Assembly: GCA_015523325.1 (NCBI GenBank)
Contig: WAKO01000003.1
Span: 77-64,076 of the forward strand
From: Candidatus Micrarchaeota archaeon
Lineage (GTDB): Archaea; Micrarchaeota; Micrarchaeia; Anstonellales; J096
Direction of reading: 5' to 3'
DNA: 64,000 nt
This document shows positions 722 through 59,076 of the stretch, one piece after another. Positions within the stretch are counted from its first letter, which is position 1. Every line of letters starts with the position of its first letter. A program made the position numbers and the translations under genes. The notes under the pieces are model-generated. The model saw only the letters and a program-made list of their open reading frames with translations. It ran no database searches and was not told the DNA's origin.

Positions 722-867
722 CCTTGGAAGACCTCTCTGGAGGGTCTGGGAGTTGGCCCCGTGAAGAAGGCTTAGAGAAGCCTTAGCTCTGGGAACCTCA
801 GAAAGACCTTTCAGGAGGGTCCACGGGGGGCAAGGCCCCGTGAAGGAAGGTTCAGAGAGGGTTCTTG
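722..867 (+). repeat. GC-rich conserved module, 1.5 tandem copies (partial copy 722-775, full copy 776-867), immediately 5-prime of tRNA-Leu(GAG). Positions 776-896 are identical to 5600-5720.
   Basis: A 121-nt block (776-896) is exactly identical to 5600-5720. About 55% GC in a ~30% GC genome. It contains the perfect hairpin CACGGGG-GGCAAGG-CCCCGTG. The partial upstream copy has the GGCCCCGTGAAG core. Confidence 0.8.
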
Positions 868-951
868 GCAGGGGTCGCCCAGTGGTCAACGGCGCCACCT
901 TGAGGGGGTGGTCCCTTAGTGGGTTCGTGGGTTCGAATCCCACCCCCTGCA
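868..951 (+). tRNA. tRNA-Leu (anticodon GAG), type II with long variable arm, no intron
   Basis: Acceptor stem GCAGGGG/CCCCTGC with discriminator A. 3-bp D-stem. Anticodon stem CCACC/GGTGG with loop TTGAGGG. Variable arm CCC-TTAGT-GGG. T-arm GTGGG-TTCGAAT-CCCAC. CCA is not encoded. Confidence 0.8.
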
Positions 952-1040: not shown

Positions 1041-1460
1041 ATGGAGCTAAATCAAACAACCTTGATTATAGGAGTTGTAGCTCTTTTGATTATAGGTTTC
1101 TTTATCTTTTCTCAAGCCACAACTCCTATGCAAGAGCAAATGAATGCAATGGAACAAGAAATGGAAGAGATGATGGATGGAGAGGTTAGAGTTATTAATG
1201 TTGATGGAAGTGAGTTTAGATTTAATCCAAGCACTATTAGAGTAACAAAAGGGGAAAGAGTCAGAGTTGTGTTTAGAAATGTTGGAACTTTGCCACATGA
1301 CTTTGTTATTGAGGGAACAAATATAAGGACTAGGATAATATCTCCTGGAGAAACAGATGCAGTAGAGTTTATAGCTGATAGGACTGGGGAGCTTACATTC
1401 TATTGTTCTGTTGGAAATCACAGGGCAAATGGAATGGAAGGAGACTTAGTTATTGAATAA
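1041..1460 (+). CDS. Membrane-anchored cupredoxin-like (type-1 copper) protein
   Basis: N-terminal transmembrane helix followed by a cupredoxin fold. Candidate copper ligands are His (PHDF), and Cys-x3-His-x4-Met (YCSVGNHRANGM). Confidence 0.65.
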   Translation: MELNQTTLIIGVVALLIIGFFIFSQATTPMQEQMNAMEQEMEEMMDGEVRVINVDGSEFRFNPSTIRVTKGERVRVVFRNVGTLPHDFVIEGTNIRTRIISPGETDAVEFIADRTGELTFYCSVGNHRANGMEGDLVIE

Positions 1461-1461
1461 A

Positions 1462-1500
1462 CTTTGTTCTTTTTCTTTTTTGTTTTTTTAGTTTTTTTCT
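1462..1500 (+). terminator. T-rich tract (archaeal oligo-T terminator candidate) after the cupredoxin gene
   Basis: ttctttttcttttttgtttttttagtttttttc lies directly after the stop codon. Confidence 0.35.
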
Positions 1501-1632
1501 AGTAAAAATTAAGCTTATTTTTAAGATTAAATTTTCTGAAATTAATTTCATTTTTGCTTCATATTTTCTTAGAAATATTTTTCAAATCTATTTCTCTTCA
1601 ACTTTTAAAAGCTATTACAGCGCTCCCCAATC

Positions 1633-2103
1633 ATGGTAGGAAATATTAAGGTTTTGCTAGGATTGGCTTTGTTGCTATTATTGGTTGGTTGCACAAGTGT
1701 TGGAGAGGATTATCCAAACTTAAAGAAGTACTTGAACGGGAGGGAAGTTATTCTTTATAAGAGCAATTTCTGTGGATGTTGTGAGGCATATGCTTCCTAT
1801 TTAGAGGAGAATGGAATAAGAGTAAAGGTTGTTTCAATGGAAAACTTAGAGGAATTAAAAAATAGGATAGGTATTCCTATGACTTATTGGAGTTGCCATA
1901 CTGTTGATTTTGGAGATTTTATTGTGGAAGGGCATGTACCTTTAAGAGCTATTGAAATAGCCTTAAGGGAAAACATTGATTTTGATGTAATAGCATTGCC
2001 TGGAATGCCTGCTGGTTCTCCTGGAATGGGAGGAGTTAAACAAGGAAAGTTTGAAATATCCTTACTAAAAAATGGAGAGGCAGTTGATAATATTTTGATT
2101 TAA
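1633..2103 (+). CDS. DUF411 / CopG-like copper-binding lipoprotein
   Basis: Lipobox-like LLVGC signal and the CxCC motif (FCGCCEAY) typical of DUF411 proteins from copper-resistance loci. A conserved His/Met region follows (HVP, GMPAGSPGM). Confidence 0.6.
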   Translation: MVGNIKVLLGLALLLLLVGCTSVGEDYPNLKKYLNGREVILYKSNFCGCCEAYASYLEENGIRVKVVSMENLEELKNRIGIPMTYWSCHTVDFGDFIVEGHVPLRAIEIALRENIDFDVIALPGMPAGSPGMGGVKQGKFEISLLKNGEAVDNILI

Positions 2104-2155
2104 TCTTATTGGTCTTTGCTTTTTTGGAGTTTGACTAAAAAATGGAGGTGAGCAT

Positions 2156-2533
2156 GTGAAAGGTAATTTAGATTTAAGGAGTTTGGACTTAAAGAGCTTT
2201 ATTGGAGGATTTTTGGTTGCTCTTCTTGTTTTTGGAGCATTCTTTTTAGCAAAACCCCAGCAAGAGGTTTCAGTAGTTTCAACAACTAGTTATTTGGAGA
2301 TTAGGGATGCATTAAAAGCAAAGCTTATGGAAGAGGGAAAGTATAGGTGTTGTATAAAAGAGCCTTGTAGTTATTGCTTGGAGGAAGGAGGTTGTGATTG
2401 CATAGACAAAATAATGGAAGGAAGAGCTCCTTGTGGAGAATGCATTGGGGAAATTTTGGAAGGAAATGCAAACCCTTATCTTTCAGATGAACAAATCTCA
2501 AGAGCTCTCTCAGAAGTTAAGGAAGAGATGTGA
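2156..2533 (+). CDS. TM-anchored cysteine-rich protein (9 Cys in ~50 aa), function unknown
   Basis: GTG start preceded by GGAGGTGA. N-terminal TM helix. Motif CCIKEPCSYCLEEGGCDCIDK...PCGEC. Confidence 0.5.
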   Translation: MKGNLDLRSLDLKSFIGGFLVALLVFGAFFLAKPQQEVSVVSTTSYLEIRDALKAKLMEEGKYRCCIKEPCSYCLEEGGCDCIDKIMEGRAPCGECIGEILEGNANPYLSDEQISRALSEVKEEM

Positions 2534-2574
2534 TTTTTTTCCCTTTTCCTTTCTTTTTGTTTTATTTTTTAACC

Positions 2575-3060
2575 CTATTTTTTCATATTTAGCTTTAAAA
2601 CAACCGCATTTGTCATTCCTCTCCTTTTCCTCTCAATAATATCTTTTGATTCTAGCTTATCCAGAATCCTTGTTATTTTCACCCTACTAAACCCAGTTTC
2701 CTTAACCAACTCACTTTGCAGCATAATTCCTTCATTTTTTAGGAGCAACTCTAGGATTAGCTTTTCCTCTCCTTTAAACATTTTTAGCAACTTTTCAGGT
2801 TTTGCTTCTTGCTTTTTTCCTTCATTGTCAAAGAATAATTGCAGGAGTGAAGCTACTATTATTAAAAGAGAAAGGGTTACTCCAACATAAGCTTCTATTG
2901 GATAATAATCTGAGTGGGGGCAATAGCCCAAAGCTTCTATACACTTATTATCATCAACCTCCTTATATTTTAAGCTCATGTATATTACAATTATTAACAA
3001 TAGGAGAGCTGCAAAAACATTTACTAAAGCTAGTGCTTTCTTTTTTCCTATCATTTTCAT
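2575..3060 (-). CDS. Membrane-associated winged-helix (MarR/ArsR-like) transcriptional regulator
   Basis: Two N-terminal TM segments followed by a wHTH (SELVKETGFSRVKITRILDKLESKDIIERK). Transcribed divergently from the KaiC-like operon. Confidence 0.55.
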   Translation of the reverse strand: MKMIGKKKALALVNVFAALLLLIIVIYMSLKYKEVDDNKCIEALGYCPHSDYYPIEAYVGVTLSLLIIVASLLQLFFDNEGKKQEAKPEKLLKMFKGEEKLILELLLKNEGIMLQSELVKETGFSRVKITRILDKLESKDIIERKRRGMTNAVVLKLNMKK

Positions 3061-5564: not shown

Positions 5565-5573
5565 TTTTAAAAA
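5565..5573 (+). promoter_or_regulatory. TATA-like box (TTTTAAAAA) 27 nt upstream of the start of the GC-rich leader module of tRNA-Leu(CAA)
   Basis: Lies in the divergent intergenic region between trpS and tRNA-Leu. The spacing implies that transcription starts at the module boundary (~5600). Confidence 0.35.
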
Positions 5574-5599
5574 CCCTTTCACCACTAAAACTTTACAAT

Positions 5600-5691
5600 A
5601 GAAGCCTTAGCTCTGGGAACCTCAGAAAGACCTTTCAGGAGGGTCCACGGGGGGCAAGGCCCCGTGAAGGAAGGTTCAGAGAGGGTTCTTG
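5600..5691 (+). repeat. GC-rich conserved module (second copy) immediately 5-prime of tRNA-Leu(CAA)
   Basis: Identical to 776-867. Same hairpin CACGGGG-GGCAAGG-CCCCGTG. Confidence 0.8.
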
Positions 5692-5787
5692 GCAGGGGTC
5701 GCCCAGTGGTCAACGGCGCCGGACTCAAGATAGGATAAGAAATCCGGTCCCTTAGTGGGTTCGTGGGTTCGAATCCCACCCCCTGCA
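5692..5787 (+). tRNA. tRNA-Leu (anticodon CAA) with a ~12-nt anticodon-loop intron
   Basis: Same body as the 868-951 tRNA (D-arm, variable arm, T-arm and acceptor identical). Anticodon stem CCGGA...TCCGG. Loop CTCAAGA after removal of the insert (A)TAGGATAAGAA at the canonical 37/38 position. Confidence 0.7.
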
Positions 5788-5798
5788 ACTTTGGTGGA

Positions 5799-18756: not shown

Positions 18757-21700
18757 TTGAGGAGAATGGTTATGCAAATCCTTTCTTTTTTTAATCTTAA
18801 TGGAGAGAAAGCAAGCATTAATTCCAGCTTATTTTACATTTTTCTTTTCTCTTTATATTTGCTTTTAATCTCTCCTTCTTTTTCCCTAATTTTGACTACT
18901 TGCTCAAACATAAGCTATTCTGGAAATTATTCTCTTGGTCAAAATATCAGTATTTCTCTAAACTCTTCTCAAGCTTGTTTTAGCATAGAAGCTCCCAATG
19001 TTTATTTTGATTGTAACGGCAATTCAGTAACCAGTACTTCTCCTTATTCTGGTTTTGCTTTCTCTTTATTAAATGTTTCTAATGTAACACTAAAGAATTG
19101 TAGAGCTTCTTTATTCAATGCATCCTTAATTTTAATCAACTCATCTTCCAATTACCTTTCTGCAAATTCTTTAATAAACAATACTTATGGACTTTATTTT
19201 TCTTCCTCTCCATTTAATCAAGTTAATGACACTAATTCTTCTCTTAATTCCATAGGGATTTTTCTTGATTCTTCTTCCCCCTCAAACCTAATCTTCAATA
19301 ACTTTTTTTCAAATACAATTAATGTTCAAGCAAATTCAGCCTCTTTTTGGAATACTTCGAAAGTAATATCAAAGAATATTCTAGGAGGGGCTTTTATAGG
19401 AGGAAACTTTTACTCCAATTACTCAGGATTTGATGGAGATGGGGATGGAATAGGGGAGAGCCCTTACTTATTTAATAATGGTGTTGATTTCCTTCCATTA
19501 ACAACAAACCTTTCCTTAAATAATTGTTTTTATGCTGGTTATGATAATTTTGTTTATAACATAAATTTTTCAATGAACTTGAATAAATCTGATGGAGCTT
19601 GTATAACTGTTTTGGGAGAGAATGTAAGCATTTATTGTAATGGTTTTGATTTGGTTGGAAATGCTTTGGAGAGTGAGCAATTAAAAGGGATTCTAGTTTT
19701 ATCAAATAATTTTAGTCTTTTTGATTGTTCTGTAATAAATTACTCCTATGGTTTATTTGCTGAGAATGTTTCTTCTCTTAGAGTGGAAAATTCAAGCTTC
19801 TTTAATAGCTCTTTTGGGATTTATCTCTATAATGTTAGCAATTCTTTATTAGAGAACAATTCCTTAATTGGTTTTTATCAAGACTATGTTGGGGACCAAG
19901 ATTATTCTATATTTTCTTTCGCTTCAAGCTTTGAAAGTAGTAACGTGATAAACTCTTCTTTTATTGGTATCTATGCTAATTCTTCTTCCATATCTTCAAA
20001 GGACATATTCTATAATTGTAGCTCTTCTTGTTTTATTTTAGTTAATTCAACAGCAAATTTGTCATCTTTTTCCTATTCCTCAACAACCTATGCTAATTTT
20101 AGTTCTTCAAATATAACCTTGAGAGATTTTGCTGTTGGTTTTTCTAATGAGTTTGGAATCATAAATTGGTCTTATGTTGGACTTTCTCAACTTTTGCTTC
20201 AAGAAGGAAAGAATATAAGGTTAGAAAGGGATTTTGTTTCACTTAACTCCTCTGATCCTTTAGCTTCTCCTCTAAACAAATCTGCAAATGTTACTCTCTT
20301 TATAGAGTATTGCACTTACGATATTTATAAAAAAGTTGGATTTCCTCTCTACAAATTAGATGTTTTGGAAAATGGAAGTGTTTATGAAGATGTTCCTTCT
20401 TGTGCTTTTAACAAAGCTAGGTTTGAGGCGGATTCTTTTTCTGGATTTGCTGCAGGAGTTTCTTTAAACAGTTGGTGGAATTGCTCATTTGCTTATAGGA
20501 TAGTTTATGAAATTAATAATAGCTTTGCAAACGTTTCTGGGGCTATTTTAAGTATTTATATAAACCACTCTATTTATCCTTCTTATTTATTCAAAGAAAA
20601 CGGAGAGGATATAAGGGTTGTTGACAAAAACCTCCAAGAAGTTCCTTTTTATATCTCCTACTTTAATGTTAATTCAACAACGCTGATTTATGCAAAGATT
20701 AACACTACCTTTAATTCTACTGAATATTTGTATGTATATTTTGGAAATGAGGAAGCTTCTTCAAAAAGCAACTTAAGTGCTGTTTTTGATTCTGTTCTGG
20801 AAGTAGGAAGAATAATTTTACCAGCACAAACCTATGCAGGGCAATGGGTGTTGAATGTTAGCTTTAACAATACAATACAAAACCCAGTTCTTGTTTTAGG
20901 TCCAGACGTAACCTATTCTGGAGTTCAAGAGTTTTATCCAAGGGTGAGAAACTTAACTCCTTATGGTTTTGAAATAAGACAACAAGAGCCTTCAAATAGG
21001 GATGACATACATATTAGTGAAACCCTCTATTATTTTGCAATGCCTCAGGGAGTGTATTTAACTGAAGATGGAAAGTTAATTGAGGGAAGAACTCAAATAC
21101 TTTCTATAGCAAAGAATGGTAGGGGGCAACCTCCAACAACTTCCTTAATTTATTTCACTTTACCTTTAAATAACCCTATTGTTGTTTCCTCAGTTGTTGA
21201 TTTTTCTTCTACAAACTATGTGCATACTAGGCAAAGAAACATACAAAGCACTTCCTTTGAACTTTATTTGGAGCCTGAAGAAAATCAAAATGCTGGTTCA
21301 GTTTCCCCAAGCCTAGTCAGTTGGATTGCATTAGAGAATTCTTCAGGAAGTTGGGATGGAAAGCTTTATGAAACCTCTCTTCTCACAACAAACCAGAACT
21401 TTGGAGTGTTAAGCTTTTTGAATAATTATAGCTATCCAGCAGTAGTTGCCAGTATGCAAACATTGAATGGAGGTGATTCAGCGGTTTTGAGGGGAAGAAA
21501 CTTACAAAGCAATTCTGTTGAATTAAGAGTTCAAGAAGATACAACTAGAGATGCAGAAACAAACCATGTTAATGAGGTTATAGGGGTTTTTGTTTTTGAA
21601 GAAGGTGTTTATCCTCTAAGACCTTACACTCCAAACATATCTATAAATGAATCATTTGCAAATATAACTAAGAGGGTTAACCTAACCTATCCAAATACCG

Positions 21701-24700
21701 GTCTTAAAGTTGATAAAGGGGAGGAGTTTACTGTTTCCTGTGAAATAAAAGCTAATGAATGTTTTGGTTGTTCAACATCTGGGTTTACTTATCTACAATT
21801 CTTTAATGGAAGTGATTGGATAACAGCAAATTCAACAACCTTACTTTCAACCCCCCTCAATGGAATTTCAACAACTCTTTCCTGTCCTTCTAGCCAAACA
21901 GTGAACTTTACGGCAAAAATAAATGAGTTGAATCAAACACTTAGGATTAGGTGTTTAACTACTTCCTCCTCAAATGCTAGTTATAGGTCAAACCAAGTTG
22001 TTGTTATAGCCCCTTACTATGAAATTGAGATAACAAACCCTGAAAACTATGAGATAGTTTACAAAGGCTCTTCTGTTCCAATAAATGTTAAAGAGTTATT
22101 TGGAAAGGACGATATAATTTATGTTAATATTTCAATAGATGGGGTTAACTACACAGCAATAGAAATATTCCCTGATGTTTGGGAGTATGTTTGGAACATT
22201 CCTCCAACACAACCAGAGGGTTTTGTTAAAATAATTGCTTATGCTTTCAACTCCACCTCTTTAGTAGCTACAAAAGAAATAGAGGTTTATGTTAGAGAAC
22301 AAGTTGTTTGTGAGTGGGTTAATACAACTTTTAAGTATAAAATAGCTGCTTTAATAAGAAATACTGAGAACTATGATATTGGAGAGGTTATGGTTCCTCT
22401 AACCTTGAAAGATTTGAACTTTTCTCTCTTCCAACCTAATGGAGAAGACCTCTACATTGTTGATTTAAATAATAATGAGATTCCATTTTGGATAGAGCAA
22501 TGGAACTTTAACAACCAAAGCATAGTTTGGGTAAGGCTTAACTTTACAGGAGGAGAGACTAAGATAATAAATATTTATTTTGGAAATGAAAGTGGAGTAG
22601 TTCCTTTAAGCAATAGAACCAACACATTCTTCAGACCTTTTGGAAAGCCCTATTATGTTGCTTTTCATGCTTCTCTTTCTGGGGCTCTAAACCTAACAAG
22701 CTATGTTGACAACAACTATTTGGTTAGTAGCTCATTAAATCAAATTGTGAATGAAAAGCAAGTTGTTGCAACTTCTTTCAATAAAGGGGAGTTAATAAAC
22801 TCCACTTATCCTATTGCTTCAACAATAACCCAAAACGCTGGGGATAGTGTTATTCCTATTGCCTTTGCAGGAACGACTTTTGTTTATCCATTTGGGGCTA
22901 GGACAGGAAGTACAGATAGCTTTTCCTTTTATGCTGTGTTTAATGACTCTTTTGTAGAGGTTTTTAGTGATGGAACTTTGGTTAATTCTGTTAATGTTCC
23001 TCAAGGCAGTTGGGTAACAATAACTGCTGATATTGCAAATAATCAAAATGCTATAATAAAGGCCTCTTCCCCAATCATTGCTTATCATGACGGAGGGAAT
23101 AGGGATTCAGTAATAATGGTTCCAGCATCTACTGAGCTCTATGGAATCTCCTCCTCTGCCTTTGTTTCAGCTCTTCAAGACAACACTTTGGTTACTATTT
23201 ATGATAGCAGTGGAGCTGTTTATTCAACAATTCTTTCTTCAAATGGATTCTTTAATATTGGAGGAGGAGGTTCTCAAGGAACAGGGGTTGCAGTTAGGCT
23301 TGTTGCAGACAAACCTATAGGAGCTATTCAAAGAGCTGATGGGGATGGAGTGGAGGAGAGCACCTTTCTCCCTCTTTCTGAGCTTGATAACTATTATGTG
23401 CTTCCAACAACTGCTGAATATGTAGCAATAGCCTGTCCTTATCCAACAGCAATTGACATTTACTCCCCTTCAGGGGTTTTAATAACCACCTTAAATTGTA
23501 ATGCTCTTCCCCCAAACCCTGGGAAAGCCTATTATTCAGCAACAAACCTTGTTGCAGGGACTTCCTTAAATTCCTCTTTGCCTTTCTATTTGTATTATGA
23601 GAGCATCCATCCAGGGGAGAATTCAGGAGGAGAAACAAATATTCTCTCCTTTAAGCAATTTAGAGGTTACACCTCTCCTTTAGCTGTTTATGTTGGAAAA
23701 GTTGAAAACAGAACTTCTGATTTGGAGGTGTTGCCTTTTATTCTCCCTACAGAAAAGAAAGAATTTGAGGATATAAACTTTTCTTCTATAATAGTTAATA
23801 ATAGAGTAGCCACCCCTTCTCCATTCAACGTTTCCTTTATTGTTGAATTCAATTCAATTAATTACACAATAGATAAGGTTGAGGTCCCTTCTTTAGCTTG
23901 TGGAGCTAATGTTTCCTTAAACTTCTCTCTCAACCATTCTAATTTGGCAGGAGGAGTTGGAATAAAGAAGCTAATAGTTTTTGCTGATGAGGATAATGTT
24001 GTTAATGAAGTTGATGAAAATAACAATATTTATTCCAGAGATGTTTCCTATTCAAAAGCTCTTTTGACAACTTGTAGGAATGCCTTGGCCGTGAATAGAA
24101 ATATAACTAAGGGAGCTATTTTAACTTTAAGAGCTATTGATGATTCTATTTATCCAATTTACAATGTTTCTTTGAGCTATTCCCCTAGCTCTCCTCCTCT
24201 TCCTTCTAGTTGTGTTTTATTTTCCCCTTCTTTCTTCTCTTCAATTCCAGCTTTAGGTTATTATAATTATTCCTTTATCGTTAACGTTTCTTGTGCTCCT
24301 ATTGGAACTAGCTTAGGATTAATAAAGTTGGATGGATTAGATTATTATCAAGACCACAACCTTTCTCAGGAGGTTTGCCAAATATCCTTAACAAAAGATT
24401 CAAATGGAGTTGTTGTTGGATCTAGCCTAATAGATTTCTCTGTTGTTGAGCCATTCTCTTATAATCAAATTAATTTCACAATTCAAAACAACGATGAGGG
24501 AAACATAACTAACTTATCCTTTACTTTCTCCAACATGCTAGCTAATCCTTCCTCGAACATTATTCCTTCCTCTTCTCTCTCCTACATTTCTGTTTTACCT
24601 ATTGAGAATGGCTCTTCAAAAGACCAGCTTATTTCTATAAACTTATCAAACACTATGCCAGGACTTTATTTGGGAAATGCAAATTCCTCCTTTTATTTCA

Positions 24701-26016
24701 ATGATAACTACTCTTTAGTTATAGAAGCTAATTTCACAACAAGGGTTAGGGTTCCATTTATTTATGATTTAGATGGAGATGGCTCTAATGAGTGGGTTTT
24801 TGATGATAATAATAATTATAATCCTGATGCTGATAGCTTTGTTGATTATGGAGATCCAACTCCTTCAGTCTTAATTTATAACAGCACTACTCTAACCTCT
24901 TCTTCTAAAAGAGGATTCTTAATAGATACTAATGGAGATAACCTTCCAGATAAGTTTTGGGATCCTACTTTTTATGGAAATCAAAGTGGTTTGGTTACAA
25001 ATGTAAATCAAACAGATTCAAACAATGATGGTGTTTTGGATTTCTTGATAGATAATGATGGAGATGGTATTTATGAGAGGGTTTTTGATGGAAAAAGGGA
25101 TTATGAACTTCCTGATTTGGTTATGGAGGCTATAAACGTTTATCCTAAGTTTAGCTCAAAGAGGATTAACATAACAATAAATGTTACAGTAAACAATTCA
25201 GGAGGCTTTAATGCAAGTAATTTTGAAGTGGGGCTTTATGTTAATGGAAATTATATATCAAACCAATCTGTTGCATTTTTGGGGGCTGGAGATAAAATAA
25301 ACTTGACTTTCTTATATGAGAATTCTTTTAGAGGTAATTCTACTGTTCTTGTTAGGGCAGACATCTTAAATGTTATTTATGAAAGTAATGACACAAGGCA
25401 GGGTTGGAACCTCTCTAATAACCAAATAAGTGATTGGTTTTACTCCAATCTATCTCATTGGGCTTATATTTATGGAAAGATAAACACTTCTCTAATATTA
25501 TCTGATTCTACCAATGTTTTTTATAAGTGGATTTGGAATGGAACAGGAAATGTTTATGTTGTTCCTCAAAACTCTTTTCCTTCTCTCTCCTCTTTAGTTG
25601 CTTTAGGAAGAACCCCTTCTTTAACTCCTTCTCTTTCTGATTTTGATGAGTTTGATAGCTTAGTTGGGCTTTCTGGATATAGTGATAGCTCAAGAAATCT
25701 CTATACAATTGGGGATGGTTCAACACCAAAGGAAACTCTAAATATTACTTTCTTTGATTACACCATTTATTACTCTCCAATCTATAATAGCTCTGACTAC
25801 TACACTGAATTTGTTACAGCTATAGCTTGGGATAGTAGTGATGACACAAACGGAGAATTTGATATTTCTGATAATGAAGATGTTGTATTAATATCACCTA
25901 TAAAATTAAATTCTACTGGAAGTTTTGGCGTTTATGATTATGAGATTAGAGTCCCAGAGTTTTTTGATACTTATAAAGGAGGTAGTTATGTTGAGATCTG
26001 GATGGAGATTAGATAG
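18757..26016 (+). CDS. Giant (2,419 aa) secreted or surface protein with parallel beta-helix repeats, dockerin/EF-hand-like Ca-binding repeats and a CARDB-like domain. Heavily N-glycosylation-sequon rich.
   Basis: N-terminal signal/anchor. Extreme N/S/T content with hundreds of N-x-S/T sequons. Beta-helix-type repeats (NSS.FN.S.GIYLYN.SNS). DxDGDG Ca-binding motifs near 24,770-25,100. A CARDB-like segment near the C-terminus. No C-terminal TM. Confidence 0.8.
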   Translation: MRRMVMQILSFFNLNGEKASINSSLFYIFLFSLYLLLISPSFSLILTTCSNISYSGNYSLGQNISISLNSSQACFSIEAPNVYFDCNGNSVTSTSPYSGFAFSLLNVSNVTLKNCRASLFNASLILINSSSNYLSANSLINNTYGLYFSSSPFNQVNDTNSSLNSIGIFLDSSSPSNLIFNNFFSNTINVQANSASFWNTSKVISKNILGGAFIGGNFYSNYSGFDGDGDGIGESPYLFNNGVDFLPLTTNLSLNNCFYAGYDNFVYNINFSMNLNKSDGACITVLGENVSIYCNGFDLVGNALESEQLKGILVLSNNFSLFDCSVINYSYGLFAENVSSLRVENSSFFNSSFGIYLYNVSNSLLENNSLIGFYQDYVGDQDYSIFSFASSFESSNVINSSFIGIYANSSSISSKDIFYNCSSSCFILVNSTANLSSFSYSSTTYANFSSSNITLRDFAVGFSNEFGIINWSYVGLSQLLLQEGKNIRLERDFVSLNSSDPLASPLNKSANVTLFIEYCTYDIYKKVGFPLYKLDVLENGSVYEDVPSCAFNKARFEADSFSGFAAGVSLNSWWNCSFAYRIVYEINNSFANVSGAILSIYINHSIYPSYLFKENGEDIRVVDKNLQEVPFYISYFNVNSTTLIYAKINTTFNSTEYLYVYFGNEEASSKSNLSAVFDSVLEVGRIILPAQTYAGQWVLNVSFNNTIQNPVLVLGPDVTYSGVQEFYPRVRNLTPYGFEIRQQEPSNRDDIHISETLYYFAMPQGVYLTEDGKLIEGRTQILSIAKNGRGQPPTTSLIYFTLPLNNPIVVSSVVDFSSTNYVHTRQRNIQSTSFELYLEPEENQNAGSVSPSLVSWIALENSSGSWDGKLYETSLLTTNQNFGVLSFLNNYSYPAVVASMQTLNGGDSAVLRGRNLQSNSVELRVQEDTTRDAETNHVNEVIGVFVFEEGVYPLRPYTPNISINESFANITKRVNLTYPNTGLKVDKGEEFTVSCEIKANECFGCSTSGFTYLQFFNGSDWITANSTTLLSTPLNGISTTLSCPSSQTVNFTAKINELNQTLRIRCLTTSSSNASYRSNQVVVIAPYYEIEITNPENYEIVYKGSSVPINVKELFGKDDIIYVNISIDGVNYTAIEIFPDVWEYVWNIPPTQPEGFVKIIAYAFNSTSLVATKEIEVYVREQVVCEWVNTTFKYKIAALIRNTENYDIGEVMVPLTLKDLNFSLFQPNGEDLYIVDLNNNEIPFWIEQWNFNNQSIVWVRLNFTGGETKIINIYFGNESGVVPLSNRTNTFFRPFGKPYYVAFHASLSGALNLTSYVDNNYLVSSSLNQIVNEKQVVATSFNKGELINSTYPIASTITQNAGDSVIPIAFAGTTFVYPFGARTGSTDSFSFYAVFNDSFVEVFSDGTLVNSVNVPQGSWVTITADIANNQNAIIKASSPIIAYHDGGNRDSVIMVPASTELYGISSSAFVSALQDNTLVTIYDSSGAVYSTILSSNGFFNIGGGGSQGTGVAVRLVADKPIGAIQRADGDGVEESTFLPLSELDNYYVLPTTAEYVAIACPYPTAIDIYSPSGVLITTLNCNALPPNPGKAYYSATNLVAGTSLNSSLPFYLYYESIHPGENSGGETNILSFKQFRGYTSPLAVYVGKVENRTSDLEVLPFILPTEKKEFEDINFSSIIVNNRVATPSPFNVSFIVEFNSINYTIDKVEVPSLACGANVSLNFSLNHSNLAGGVGIKKLIVFADEDNVVNEVDENNNIYSRDVSYSKALLTTCRNALAVNRNITKGAILTLRAIDDSIYPIYNVSLSYSPSSPPLPSSCVLFSPSFFSSIPALGYYNYSFIVNVSCAPIGTSLGLIKLDGLDYYQDHNLSQEVCQISLTKDSNGVVVGSSLIDFSVVEPFSYNQINFTIQNNDEGNITNLSFTFSNMLANPSSNIIPSSSLSYISVLPIENGSSKDQLISINLSNTMPGLYLGNANSSFYFNDNYSLVIEANFTTRVRVPFIYDLDGDGSNEWVFDDNNNYNPDADSFVDYGDPTPSVLIYNSTTLTSSSKRGFLIDTNGDNLPDKFWDPTFYGNQSGLVTNVNQTDSNNDGVLDFLIDNDGDGIYERVFDGKRDYELPDLVMEAINVYPKFSSKRINITINVTVNNSGGFNASNFEVGLYVNGNYISNQSVAFLGAGDKINLTFLYENSFRGNSTVLVRADILNVIYESNDTRQGWNLSNNQISDWFYSNLSHWAYIYGKINTSLILSDSTNVFYKWIWNGTGNVYVVPQNSFPSLSSLVALGRTPSLTPSLSDFDEFDSLVGLSGYSDSSRNLYTIGDGSTPKETLNITFFDYTIYYSPIYNSSDYYTEFVTAIAWDSSDDTNGEFDISDNEDVVLISPIKLNSTGSFGVYDYEIRVPEFFDTYKGGSYVEIWMEIR

Positions 26017-58975: not shown

Positions 58976-59076
58976 TGGGCCCGGTGGGATTTGAACCCAC
59001 GACCTACGGCTATCTTAGAATCCATTAGAGCGGGTCTTATAAGACCGTCGCTCTAACCTGGCTGAGCTACGGGCCC
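58976..59076 (-). tRNA. tRNA-Ile with predicted UAU anticodon and a ~26-nt anticodon-loop intron
   Basis: Reverse complement reads GGGCCCGTAGCTCAGCCAGGTTAGAGC-G-ACGGT-CTTATA[A-GACCCGCTCTAATGGATTCTAAGAT]A-GCCGT-AGGTC-GTGGGTTCAAATCCCAC-CGGGCCC-A. The archaeal tRNA-Ile-like acceptor/D-arm GGGCCCGTAGCTCAG is present. Spliced loop CTTATAA. Confidence 0.65.

Follow-up and report, generated by a model that had tools for sequence, protein, structure and literature searches.

A GC-rich structured repeat beside the tRNA-Leu genes of two related archaeal genomes

What is the GC-rich sequence that precedes both tRNA-Leu genes in the window (the whole 64-kb stretch of DNA analyzed here)? The initial annotation had described it as a conserved module of about 90 nt fused to the 5' side of the two genes and had offered three readings of it: a leader-derived sRNA, a protein-binding element, or a tRNA-associated repeat family. 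The features of the two loci are as follows.

668-681, + strand: TATA/BRE-like promoter box of locus 1, GGTTTTTAAATAAC; 22-24 nt before the GC-rich block, which starts at ~702
717-790, + strand: unit A, the degenerate copy of the repeat, 74 nt; alignment, nhmmer E = 1.8e-8, CM 48.6 bits
776-867, + strand: the 92-nt module, a 15-nt A-type tail plus unit B; predicted three-way junction closed by 787-798/848-859
791-867, + strand: unit B, 77 nt
805-821, + strand: hairpin 1, GACCTTT-CAG-GAGGGTC, whose 3' arm is the invariant GGAGGGT
822-842 (copy at 5646-5666), + strand: hairpin 2, CACGGGG-GGCAAGG-CCCCGTG, with a perfect 7-bp stem
868-951, + strand: tRNA-Leu(GAG); ARAGORN, Rfam
5565-5576, + strand: promoter of locus 2, TTTTAAAAACCC; consensus as in the tRNA promoters of relatives
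5600-5691, + strand: second copy of the 92-nt module, 100% identical to 776-867
5692-5787, + strand: tRNA-Leu(CAA); Rfam; anticodon and 12-nt intron (5730-5741) read by eye

A repeat finder returned exact identity over 121 nt between 776-896 and 5600-5720, made up of 92 non-tRNA nucleotides and the first 29 nt of the tRNA, as the initial annotation had stated. The 3' portions of both tRNAs lie in a further stretch of perfect identity (910-955 = 5746-5791), and the differences between tRNA-Leu(GAG) and tRNA-Leu(CAA) are confined to the anticodon arm and the intron. The GC content of the 92-nt module is 57.6% compared with 33.7% for the window, which bears out its description as GC-rich; a 60-nt window slid along the 64 kb reached 55% GC or more, outside coding sequence, at the three tRNAs and the modules and nowhere else. 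The perfect 7-bp stem of hairpin 2 was likewise recovered at both loci. An independent assembly of the same organism (Logan SRR10312503, contig L002, 4704 nt) ends at both repeat copies, with one contig end lying within the module and the other within the shared 3' part of the tRNA. Such breaks are as expected if the repeat is genuine and exceeds the k-mer length of the assembler.

The arrangement at locus 1 had been read as 1.5 tandem units; we found instead two full units, 717-790 and 791-867. Both open with GGGAACC (at 717 and 791), which, with the tRNA start at 868, sets their lengths at 74 and 77 nt. With a similarity of only ~70% and indels between the units, the tandem escapes TRF, but profile and CM searches detect it. 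Hairpin 2 of unit A is truncated through a 4-nt deletion, and the tail of the unit carries an 11-nt duplication, AGAAGGCTTAG/AGAAGCCTTAG. The 92-nt module opens with 15 nt, AGAAGCCTTAGCTCT (776-790 = 5600-5614), that correspond to the tail of an A-type unit. The tandem duplication itself occupies 765-786 and can also form a hairpin (767-773/778-784). Its second copy begins at 776, exactly where the 121 nt shared with locus 2 begin.

We then asked how the two genes could be transcribed. TATA-like boxes had been noted upstream of both modules, and we found them 22-26 nt before the GC-rich block, with the core promoter box of locus 1, TTTTTAAATA, at 670-679. At locus 2, the end of the TATA box and the start of the module (5600) are 26 nt apart. 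The corresponding consensus in front of the tRNA-Leu genes of relatives, TTTAAAAACC, ends 27, 30, and 31 nt before tRNA +1. The module had also been said to have no TATA of its own, and indeed it lacks an A/T-rich octamer; no other promoter or TATA was found within the module at either locus. Because the module starts at about the distance from its archaeal TATA box that separates box and tRNA-Leu gene in the relatives (26 nt versus 27-31 nt), the tRNAs could only be made with the module as a 5' leader. From established archaeal promoter geometry, we infer that transcription of both tRNA-Leu genes starts with the first base of the GC-rich block, which would give leaders of 92 nt for tRNA-Leu(CAA) and roughly 165 nt for tRNA-Leu(GAG). 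The proposal that the module forms a structured leader of the tRNA transcripts is thus supported by promoter geometry. The box of locus 1 (668-681) is palindromic enough to serve the divergent RsmB-like gene too.

The predicted folds have the module closing on itself (787-798/848-859) around two internal hairpins, with 2 unpaired nucleotides between it and the acceptor stem, and no bulge-helix-bulge appears at the module/tRNA junction in these folds. Since module and tRNA fold as separate domains, cleavage by RNase P at G+1 is the expected way to remove the leader, and the leader would presumably be released by such an endonucleolytic cut. Archaeal tRNA leaders are expected to be short or absent. 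Under this model, a small-genome archaeon would produce two of its essential tRNAs solely by way of precursors with long, stably folded leaders, which would imply a competent 5' endonuclease in this DPANN-like lineage.

Does the module belong to a described class of RNA? Neither CTGA, the sign of a C/D box sRNA, nor ACA, that of an H/ACA sRNA, occurs on the + strand of 700-867, as the initial annotation had reported. GTGAAGA, with 1 mismatch, and GTGAAGG, with 2, come closest to a C box, and Rfam returns no H/ACA match. The Rfam scan assigned the copies of neither genome that carries the family (see below) to a known family, the best non-tRNA scores being 13-20 bits against thresholds of 32-90. 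With the boxes absent and the Rfam scores below threshold, we rejected a hammerhead or other ribozyme as well as the C/D and H/ACA identities.

The unit is tRNA-sized and has a terminal stem of 7-8 bp, without a T or D arm. A tRNA-like element or pseudogene was rejected, as ARAGORN and the Rfam tRNA model match the true tRNAs only. The idea of a decayed tRNA-Leu copy or an acceptor-stem duplicate was dropped as well: the resemblance of TGCGGGGCCTCGCCC to TGCAGGGGTCGCCC is not significant, and local alignments scored z values of -1.1 to 1.4 against shuffles. The hairpin loop GGCAAGG might be taken for an anticodon mimic (CAA), but the loop in the related genome described below is GGCGAGG, and we discarded this idea. 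A split or permuted tRNA leader was also rejected; the tRNAs are complete, and what follows them on the 3' side is AT-rich and shows no complementarity to the module. The likeness to the split-tRNA leaders and trailers of Nanoarchaeum equitans consists in a GC-rich non-tRNA sequence fused to a tRNA in an AT-rich DPANN-type genome; unlike that system, both tRNA-Leu genes are intact, with no complementary partner and no bulge-helix-bulge. For annotation, these results are a caution that GC islands beside tRNAs in AT-rich archaeal genomes do not always belong to a tRNA or a known sRNA.

If the module were a conserved tRNA leader, it should be found in related genomes. The window's TrpRS is ~63-67% identical to proteins named Micrarchaeota, Bilamarchaeaceae, or Aenigmarchaeota, for which reason we class the organism as a DPANN-like archaeon, and three relatives have a TrpRS that is 73-80% identical to it (78-80% for the closest ones). 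L136 (GCA_053992915.1) keeps the gene order tRNA-Leu / TrpRS / KaiC-like / MJ0538-like / cargo / tRNA-Leu(GAG), and L138 (GCA_015523365.1) keeps tRNA-Leu(TAA) beside TrpRS; more distant TrpRS relatives (65-68% identity) showed no such tRNA-Leu synteny. The tRNA-Leu genes of L136 and L138 lack a 5' module and have a plain AT-rich promoter in its place, so in neither of the two closest genomes that share this synteny is the leader conserved. Near the promoter, the sequence of the window (…CCACTAAAACTTTACAAT) can be aligned with that of L136 (…CCACTATTCATTTACTATTGTTT). Because the promoters of the relatives lie directly before the tRNA, without a module, the module in the window is inserted sequence that lies precisely between the transcription start and tRNA +1.

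The tRNA-Leu beside TrpRS reads CAA and has a 12-nt intron in the window (5692-5787), but it is an intronless TAA gene in L136 (5216-5303) and L138 (683-767), so that at this conserved locus either the anticodon has switched or the gene has been replaced.

The sole other genome with the family is L136, and there the units are placed differently. Three homologous units abut the 3' ends of both its tRNA-Leu genes, starting 2-4 nt past the tRNA end and inverted relative to the tRNA.

L136 5086-5215: approximately two units in tandem, following tRNA-Leu(TAA)
L136 9082-9133: a single unit, following tRNA-Leu(GAG)

The homology was found in both directions. A profile built from the window units alone ranked the three L136 units at the top in 898 kb (E = 0.004-0.025), and a profile built from the L136 units alone ranked the three window units at the top (E = 2e-6, 2e-6, and 0.014). 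The core common to the units of the two genomes is TCNGGAGGGTNNRCGGGGGGCRAGGCCCCG; among the L136 units, a core of 22-29 nt is 100% identical in all three, whereas the flanks have diverged. Just upstream of the L136 unit U2, an AT-rich spacer (L136 5046-5104, + strand) gives weak sR11 (13.6 bits) and snoMe28S (18.5 bits) hits, far below threshold; the spacer has AGTGATGT close to its beginning, and CTGA stands where it meets the unit.

These placements bear on the idea that the element is a cis-acting regulatory leader controlling tRNA-Leu maturation or level, be it as a K-turn-like protein-binding junction, an RNA thermometer, or a site for LeuRS or L7Ae. Both pre-tRNA-Leu transcripts would necessarily contain the module, it is confined to Leu isoacceptors, and its junction strands are GA-rich, with GTGAAGG 1-2 mismatches from a C box. 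However, the module is missing 5' of tRNA-Leu in the closest relatives, the CAA of the loop is not conserved between the genomes (GGCAAGG versus GGCGAGG), nothing links the element to leucine, and the same element stands inverted at 3' ends in L136, where it is unable to serve as a leader. We therefore regard a regulatory leader as highly improbable.

To define the distribution of the family, we searched well beyond the two loci. Profile and CM searches revealed no extra copies in the window, in L137-L139, or in the rest of the scaffold part that we inspected, which comprises 76 kb (194-270.7 kb) of the 270.7-kb metagenome scaffold ERZ23495365 (REYS20-1 scaffold_5). The known units thus number six in two genomes, with three in the 76 kb inspected here and another three in 16.7 kb of L136, and all six lie at tRNA-Leu ends. 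Both tRNA-Leu loci carry units in the window genome and in L136, whereas the single tRNA-Leu locus seen in L138 has none. The element is absent at the tRNA-His, tRNA-Ile, tRNA-Asp, and tRNA-Gly genes of these genomes, which have ordinary flanks. Among ~110-120 JGI metagenome tRNA-Leu genes with the same 3' end, none had the module beside it, and the 5' flanks were AT-rich. A degenerate 25-nt core pattern, TCNGGAGGGTNNRCGGGGGGCRAGG, had 0 matches in JGI metagenomes and IMG/VR, and among the matches listed for the 16-nt core GGCCCCGTGAAG(N)AAGG in GTDB genomes there were only chance ones in GC-rich bacteria. blastn against phage and plasmid collections gave nothing relevant. A search for miscalled genes in relatives, in which the peptide of the module's spurious antisense ORF was compared with 5.8 billion proteins, also found nothing.

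Taken together, confinement to two sister genomes, an invariable position at a tRNA-Leu gene end, the flipped side and orientation, presence at both tRNA-Leu loci of the two genomes but not at the one seen in L138, and tandem and partial copies fit an inserted repeat rather than a conserved tRNA leader. The module matches no described family and behaves like a small structured repeat tied to tRNA-Leu ends, so that of the options in the initial annotation the tRNA-associated repeat family fits best. The explanation we favor, which in our judgment has about an even chance of being correct, is a GC-rich structured repeat restricted to this lineage, which settles at the ends of tRNA-Leu genes and is homogenized by gene conversion. 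Its mobility is deduced from presence/absence and orientation only, as the six units known from two genomes all lie beside tRNA-Leu. With two genomes only, the family is a lead and not yet a result.

According to this model, the repeat would have been inserted, and once tandemly duplicated, exactly between the transcription start and tRNA +1 in the window genome. Gene conversion between the two Leu isoacceptor genes would then have made the copies identical; the genes share identical 5' and 3' parts and so offer ample homology for conversion. The identity may begin at the start site because a conversion tract extending further left would destroy the promoter. It had been suggested that a very recent local duplication of one tRNA-Leu gene with its upstream sequence might explain the identity away. 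The 100% identity between the loci does speak for recent homogenization, but the family is older than that event. Once transcribed, the leader would fold as an autonomous domain and would have to be cut at G+1, presumably by RNase P, and we propose that excision by the enzymes that process tRNA ends is what makes the element tolerable.

Short repeats of a similar kind are known. MITE-like sRNA elements are documented in archaea (PMC6009581). Like archaeal MITEs, the MITE-like sRNA element of Pyrobaculum calidifontis, and bacterial REP/Correia-type repeats, our unit is short and non-coding, forms hairpins, and has candidate imperfect inverted repeats near its ends; its presence varies among close relatives, it occurs in partial and tandem copies, and it would be co-transcribed with a neighboring gene. 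Unlike them, it is found only at tRNA-Leu ends (6/6), without a target-site duplication or a partner transposase being seen, and it is much more GC-rich than its genome. Comparison of filled and empty sites revealed no flanking direct repeat, and the many dispersed copies by which MITEs are recognized were not found, all six units being at tRNA-Leu ends. The Pfam lists for the 76 kb inspected contain no transposase or integrase; the genes there include housekeeping genes, such as those for TrpRS, SerRS, IleRS, PheRS, HisRS, the CCA-adding enzyme, and topoisomerase I.

Integrative elements that target tRNA genes offer another way to place such sequences at tRNA ends, and the units could be scars, e.g. 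att-site remnants, left in tRNA-Leu genes after integration and excision. Like such scars, the units lie within 0-4 nt of the mature tRNA ends, and one of the tRNAs has variable cargo beside it. The genes between MJ0538-like and tRNA-Leu(GAG) differ between the genomes, which makes the 3' side of this tRNA a variable spot: cupredoxin, DUF411, a Cys-rich protein, and a MarR-like protein, a copper-related set, at 1041-3060 in the window versus a GH5 glycosidase at 7939-9066 in L136, where the unit sits between the tRNA and the cargo. A precedent for scars comes from an unrelated metagenomic lineage (L197 849-945, L214, and L246), in which GAG, CAG, and TAG tRNA-Leu genes have a near-identical 3' trailer of ~95 nt; two of the three trailers end in a second copy of AATCCCACCCCCTGCA, that is, a duplicated tRNA 3' end, which looks like an att-type duplication. 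att sites carry a duplicated segment of the target tRNA. Our units have no detectable similarity to tRNA (z about 0) and therefore contain no such segment. The window units, moreover, lie 5', between promoter and tRNA and not on the cargo side, no integrase is encoded within the 76 kb, and the viral, phage, and plasmid collections yielded no matches. On balance, we consider att scars very unlikely.

How could one repeat come to lie 5' and direct in one genome but 3' and inverted in its sister? In both, the hairpin-2 side of the unit faces GCAGGGG, which is the tRNA 5' end in the window and the complement of the tRNA 3' end in L136. Because the two sides of the acceptor stem are complementary, GCAGGGG marks the 5' end on one strand and the 3' end on the opposite strand. 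A process that places the hairpin-2 side of the unit next to GCAGGGG might, speculatively, have produced both outcomes, and a single targeting or recombination preference could explain both placements through the symmetry of the acceptor stem. A more specific version, which we think improbable, invokes a miniature element, or the gene of a processed sRNA, homing to tRNA-Leu acceptor-stem ends via GCAGGGG on either strand and relying on RNase P and RNase Z for its excision. If true, this would give the tRNA-gene-targeting elements of eukaryotes a counterpart in archaea, or it would define a new kind of sRNA in DPANN that depends on tRNA processing. A flip from 5'-direct to 3'-inverted in sister genomes is unusual and could expose a targeting or recombination mechanism at tRNA gene termini.

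Finally, we assessed whether the element is more than a passive repeat by comparing the structures of its copies. The conserved core, ~50 nt of the ~75-nt unit, consists of two adjacent hairpins. The 92-nt module folds at -37.2 kcal/mol (z = -1.55) and its complement at -30.9 kcal/mol; for the L136 units (131 nt), the values are -55.7 kcal/mol (z = -2.8) versus -34 kcal/mol (z = 0.04) for the complement. The better-folding strand is sense to the tRNA in the window and antisense in L136, and the gap is clear in L136 and weak in the window; this asymmetry may be partly due to the G-richness of that strand. The arm pair 787-798/848-859, 12 nt long, 83% complementary, and near the ends of the 92-nt module, has no equivalent that we could recognize by eye in the L136 units.

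A two-hairpin model of 14 pairs was applied to the five distinct units. Paired states filled 86.6% of the cells, compared with at most 64.6% when the partners were slid by 1-3 columns. Three pairs change on both sides among the five sequences, although shuffles reach the observed values in 56-108 of 500 cases, which is not significant. Hairpin 2 has two compensatory pair changes relative to L136, where the C-G/A-U at its base becomes U-A/G-C. Given five sequences and a shuffle control that is not significant, the covariation is suggestive only. GC-richness retained in a 34% GC genome, the invariant L136 core, and the compensatory changes suggest selection on the element itself. These hints are not predicted by a purely selfish or neutral repeat, and we therefore keep a functional sRNA as a serious rival to the favored repeat.

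Such an sRNA would be a stable RNA whose gene uses tRNA-Leu as a platform for expression and processing, being released by RNase P in the window genome and independently or convergently transcribed in L136. All other non-coding GC islands of this genome are structural RNAs, which is what an sRNA gene would lead one to expect, as are the maintenance of the two-hairpin core through double-sided pair changes, the better folding of the same strand of the unit in both genomes, and a core that stays 100% conserved among L136 units with diverged flanks. Dicistrons of tRNA and sRNA are known in archaea, namely C/D box sRNA-tRNA in Nanoarchaeum equitans and sR44-tRNA-Met in Pyrobaculum (PMC6009581). 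Our loci resemble them in that a structured non-coding sequence abuts a tRNA gene under a common promoter, that tRNA end processing would separate the two, and that the linkage is evolutionarily fluid among related genomes. They differ in that the module has no C/D boxes or guide regions and no Rfam C/D score near threshold, and in that its orientation flips between genomes. The inversion weighs against an sRNA, as the better-folding L136 strand is antisense to the tRNA and would need a putative promoter of its own, and so does the absence of the element at the syntenic tRNA-Leu(TAA) locus of L138. C/D, H/ACA, and Rfam signatures are all missing, the fold z-scores of the window copy are weak for the module (above) and for the whole precursors (-1.16 and -0.71), and the double-sided changes fall within the range of the shuffle control. 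We consider this reading possible, though unlikely.

Several other features came to our attention during the survey of tRNA genes. The window encodes at 58976-59076 (- strand) a tRNA-Ile whose anticodon is TAT and in which ARAGORN, run in intron mode, places an intron of 26 nt (Rfam 63 bits); its flank is an ordinary AT-rich promoter without the module. Isoleucine tRNAs that read UAU are uncommon among archaea, Nanoarchaeum and Korarchaeum being the known cases. The tRNA-Leu(CAA) at L181 3630-3755 (- strand) has an intron of ~40 nt with GTGATGA and GGATGA motifs, which may encode a C/D box sRNA. Outside the tRNA genes, the window contains at 18757-26016 (+ strand) an ORF of 2419 amino acids with NosD, DUF2341, and CARDB domains, presumably a giant surface protein.
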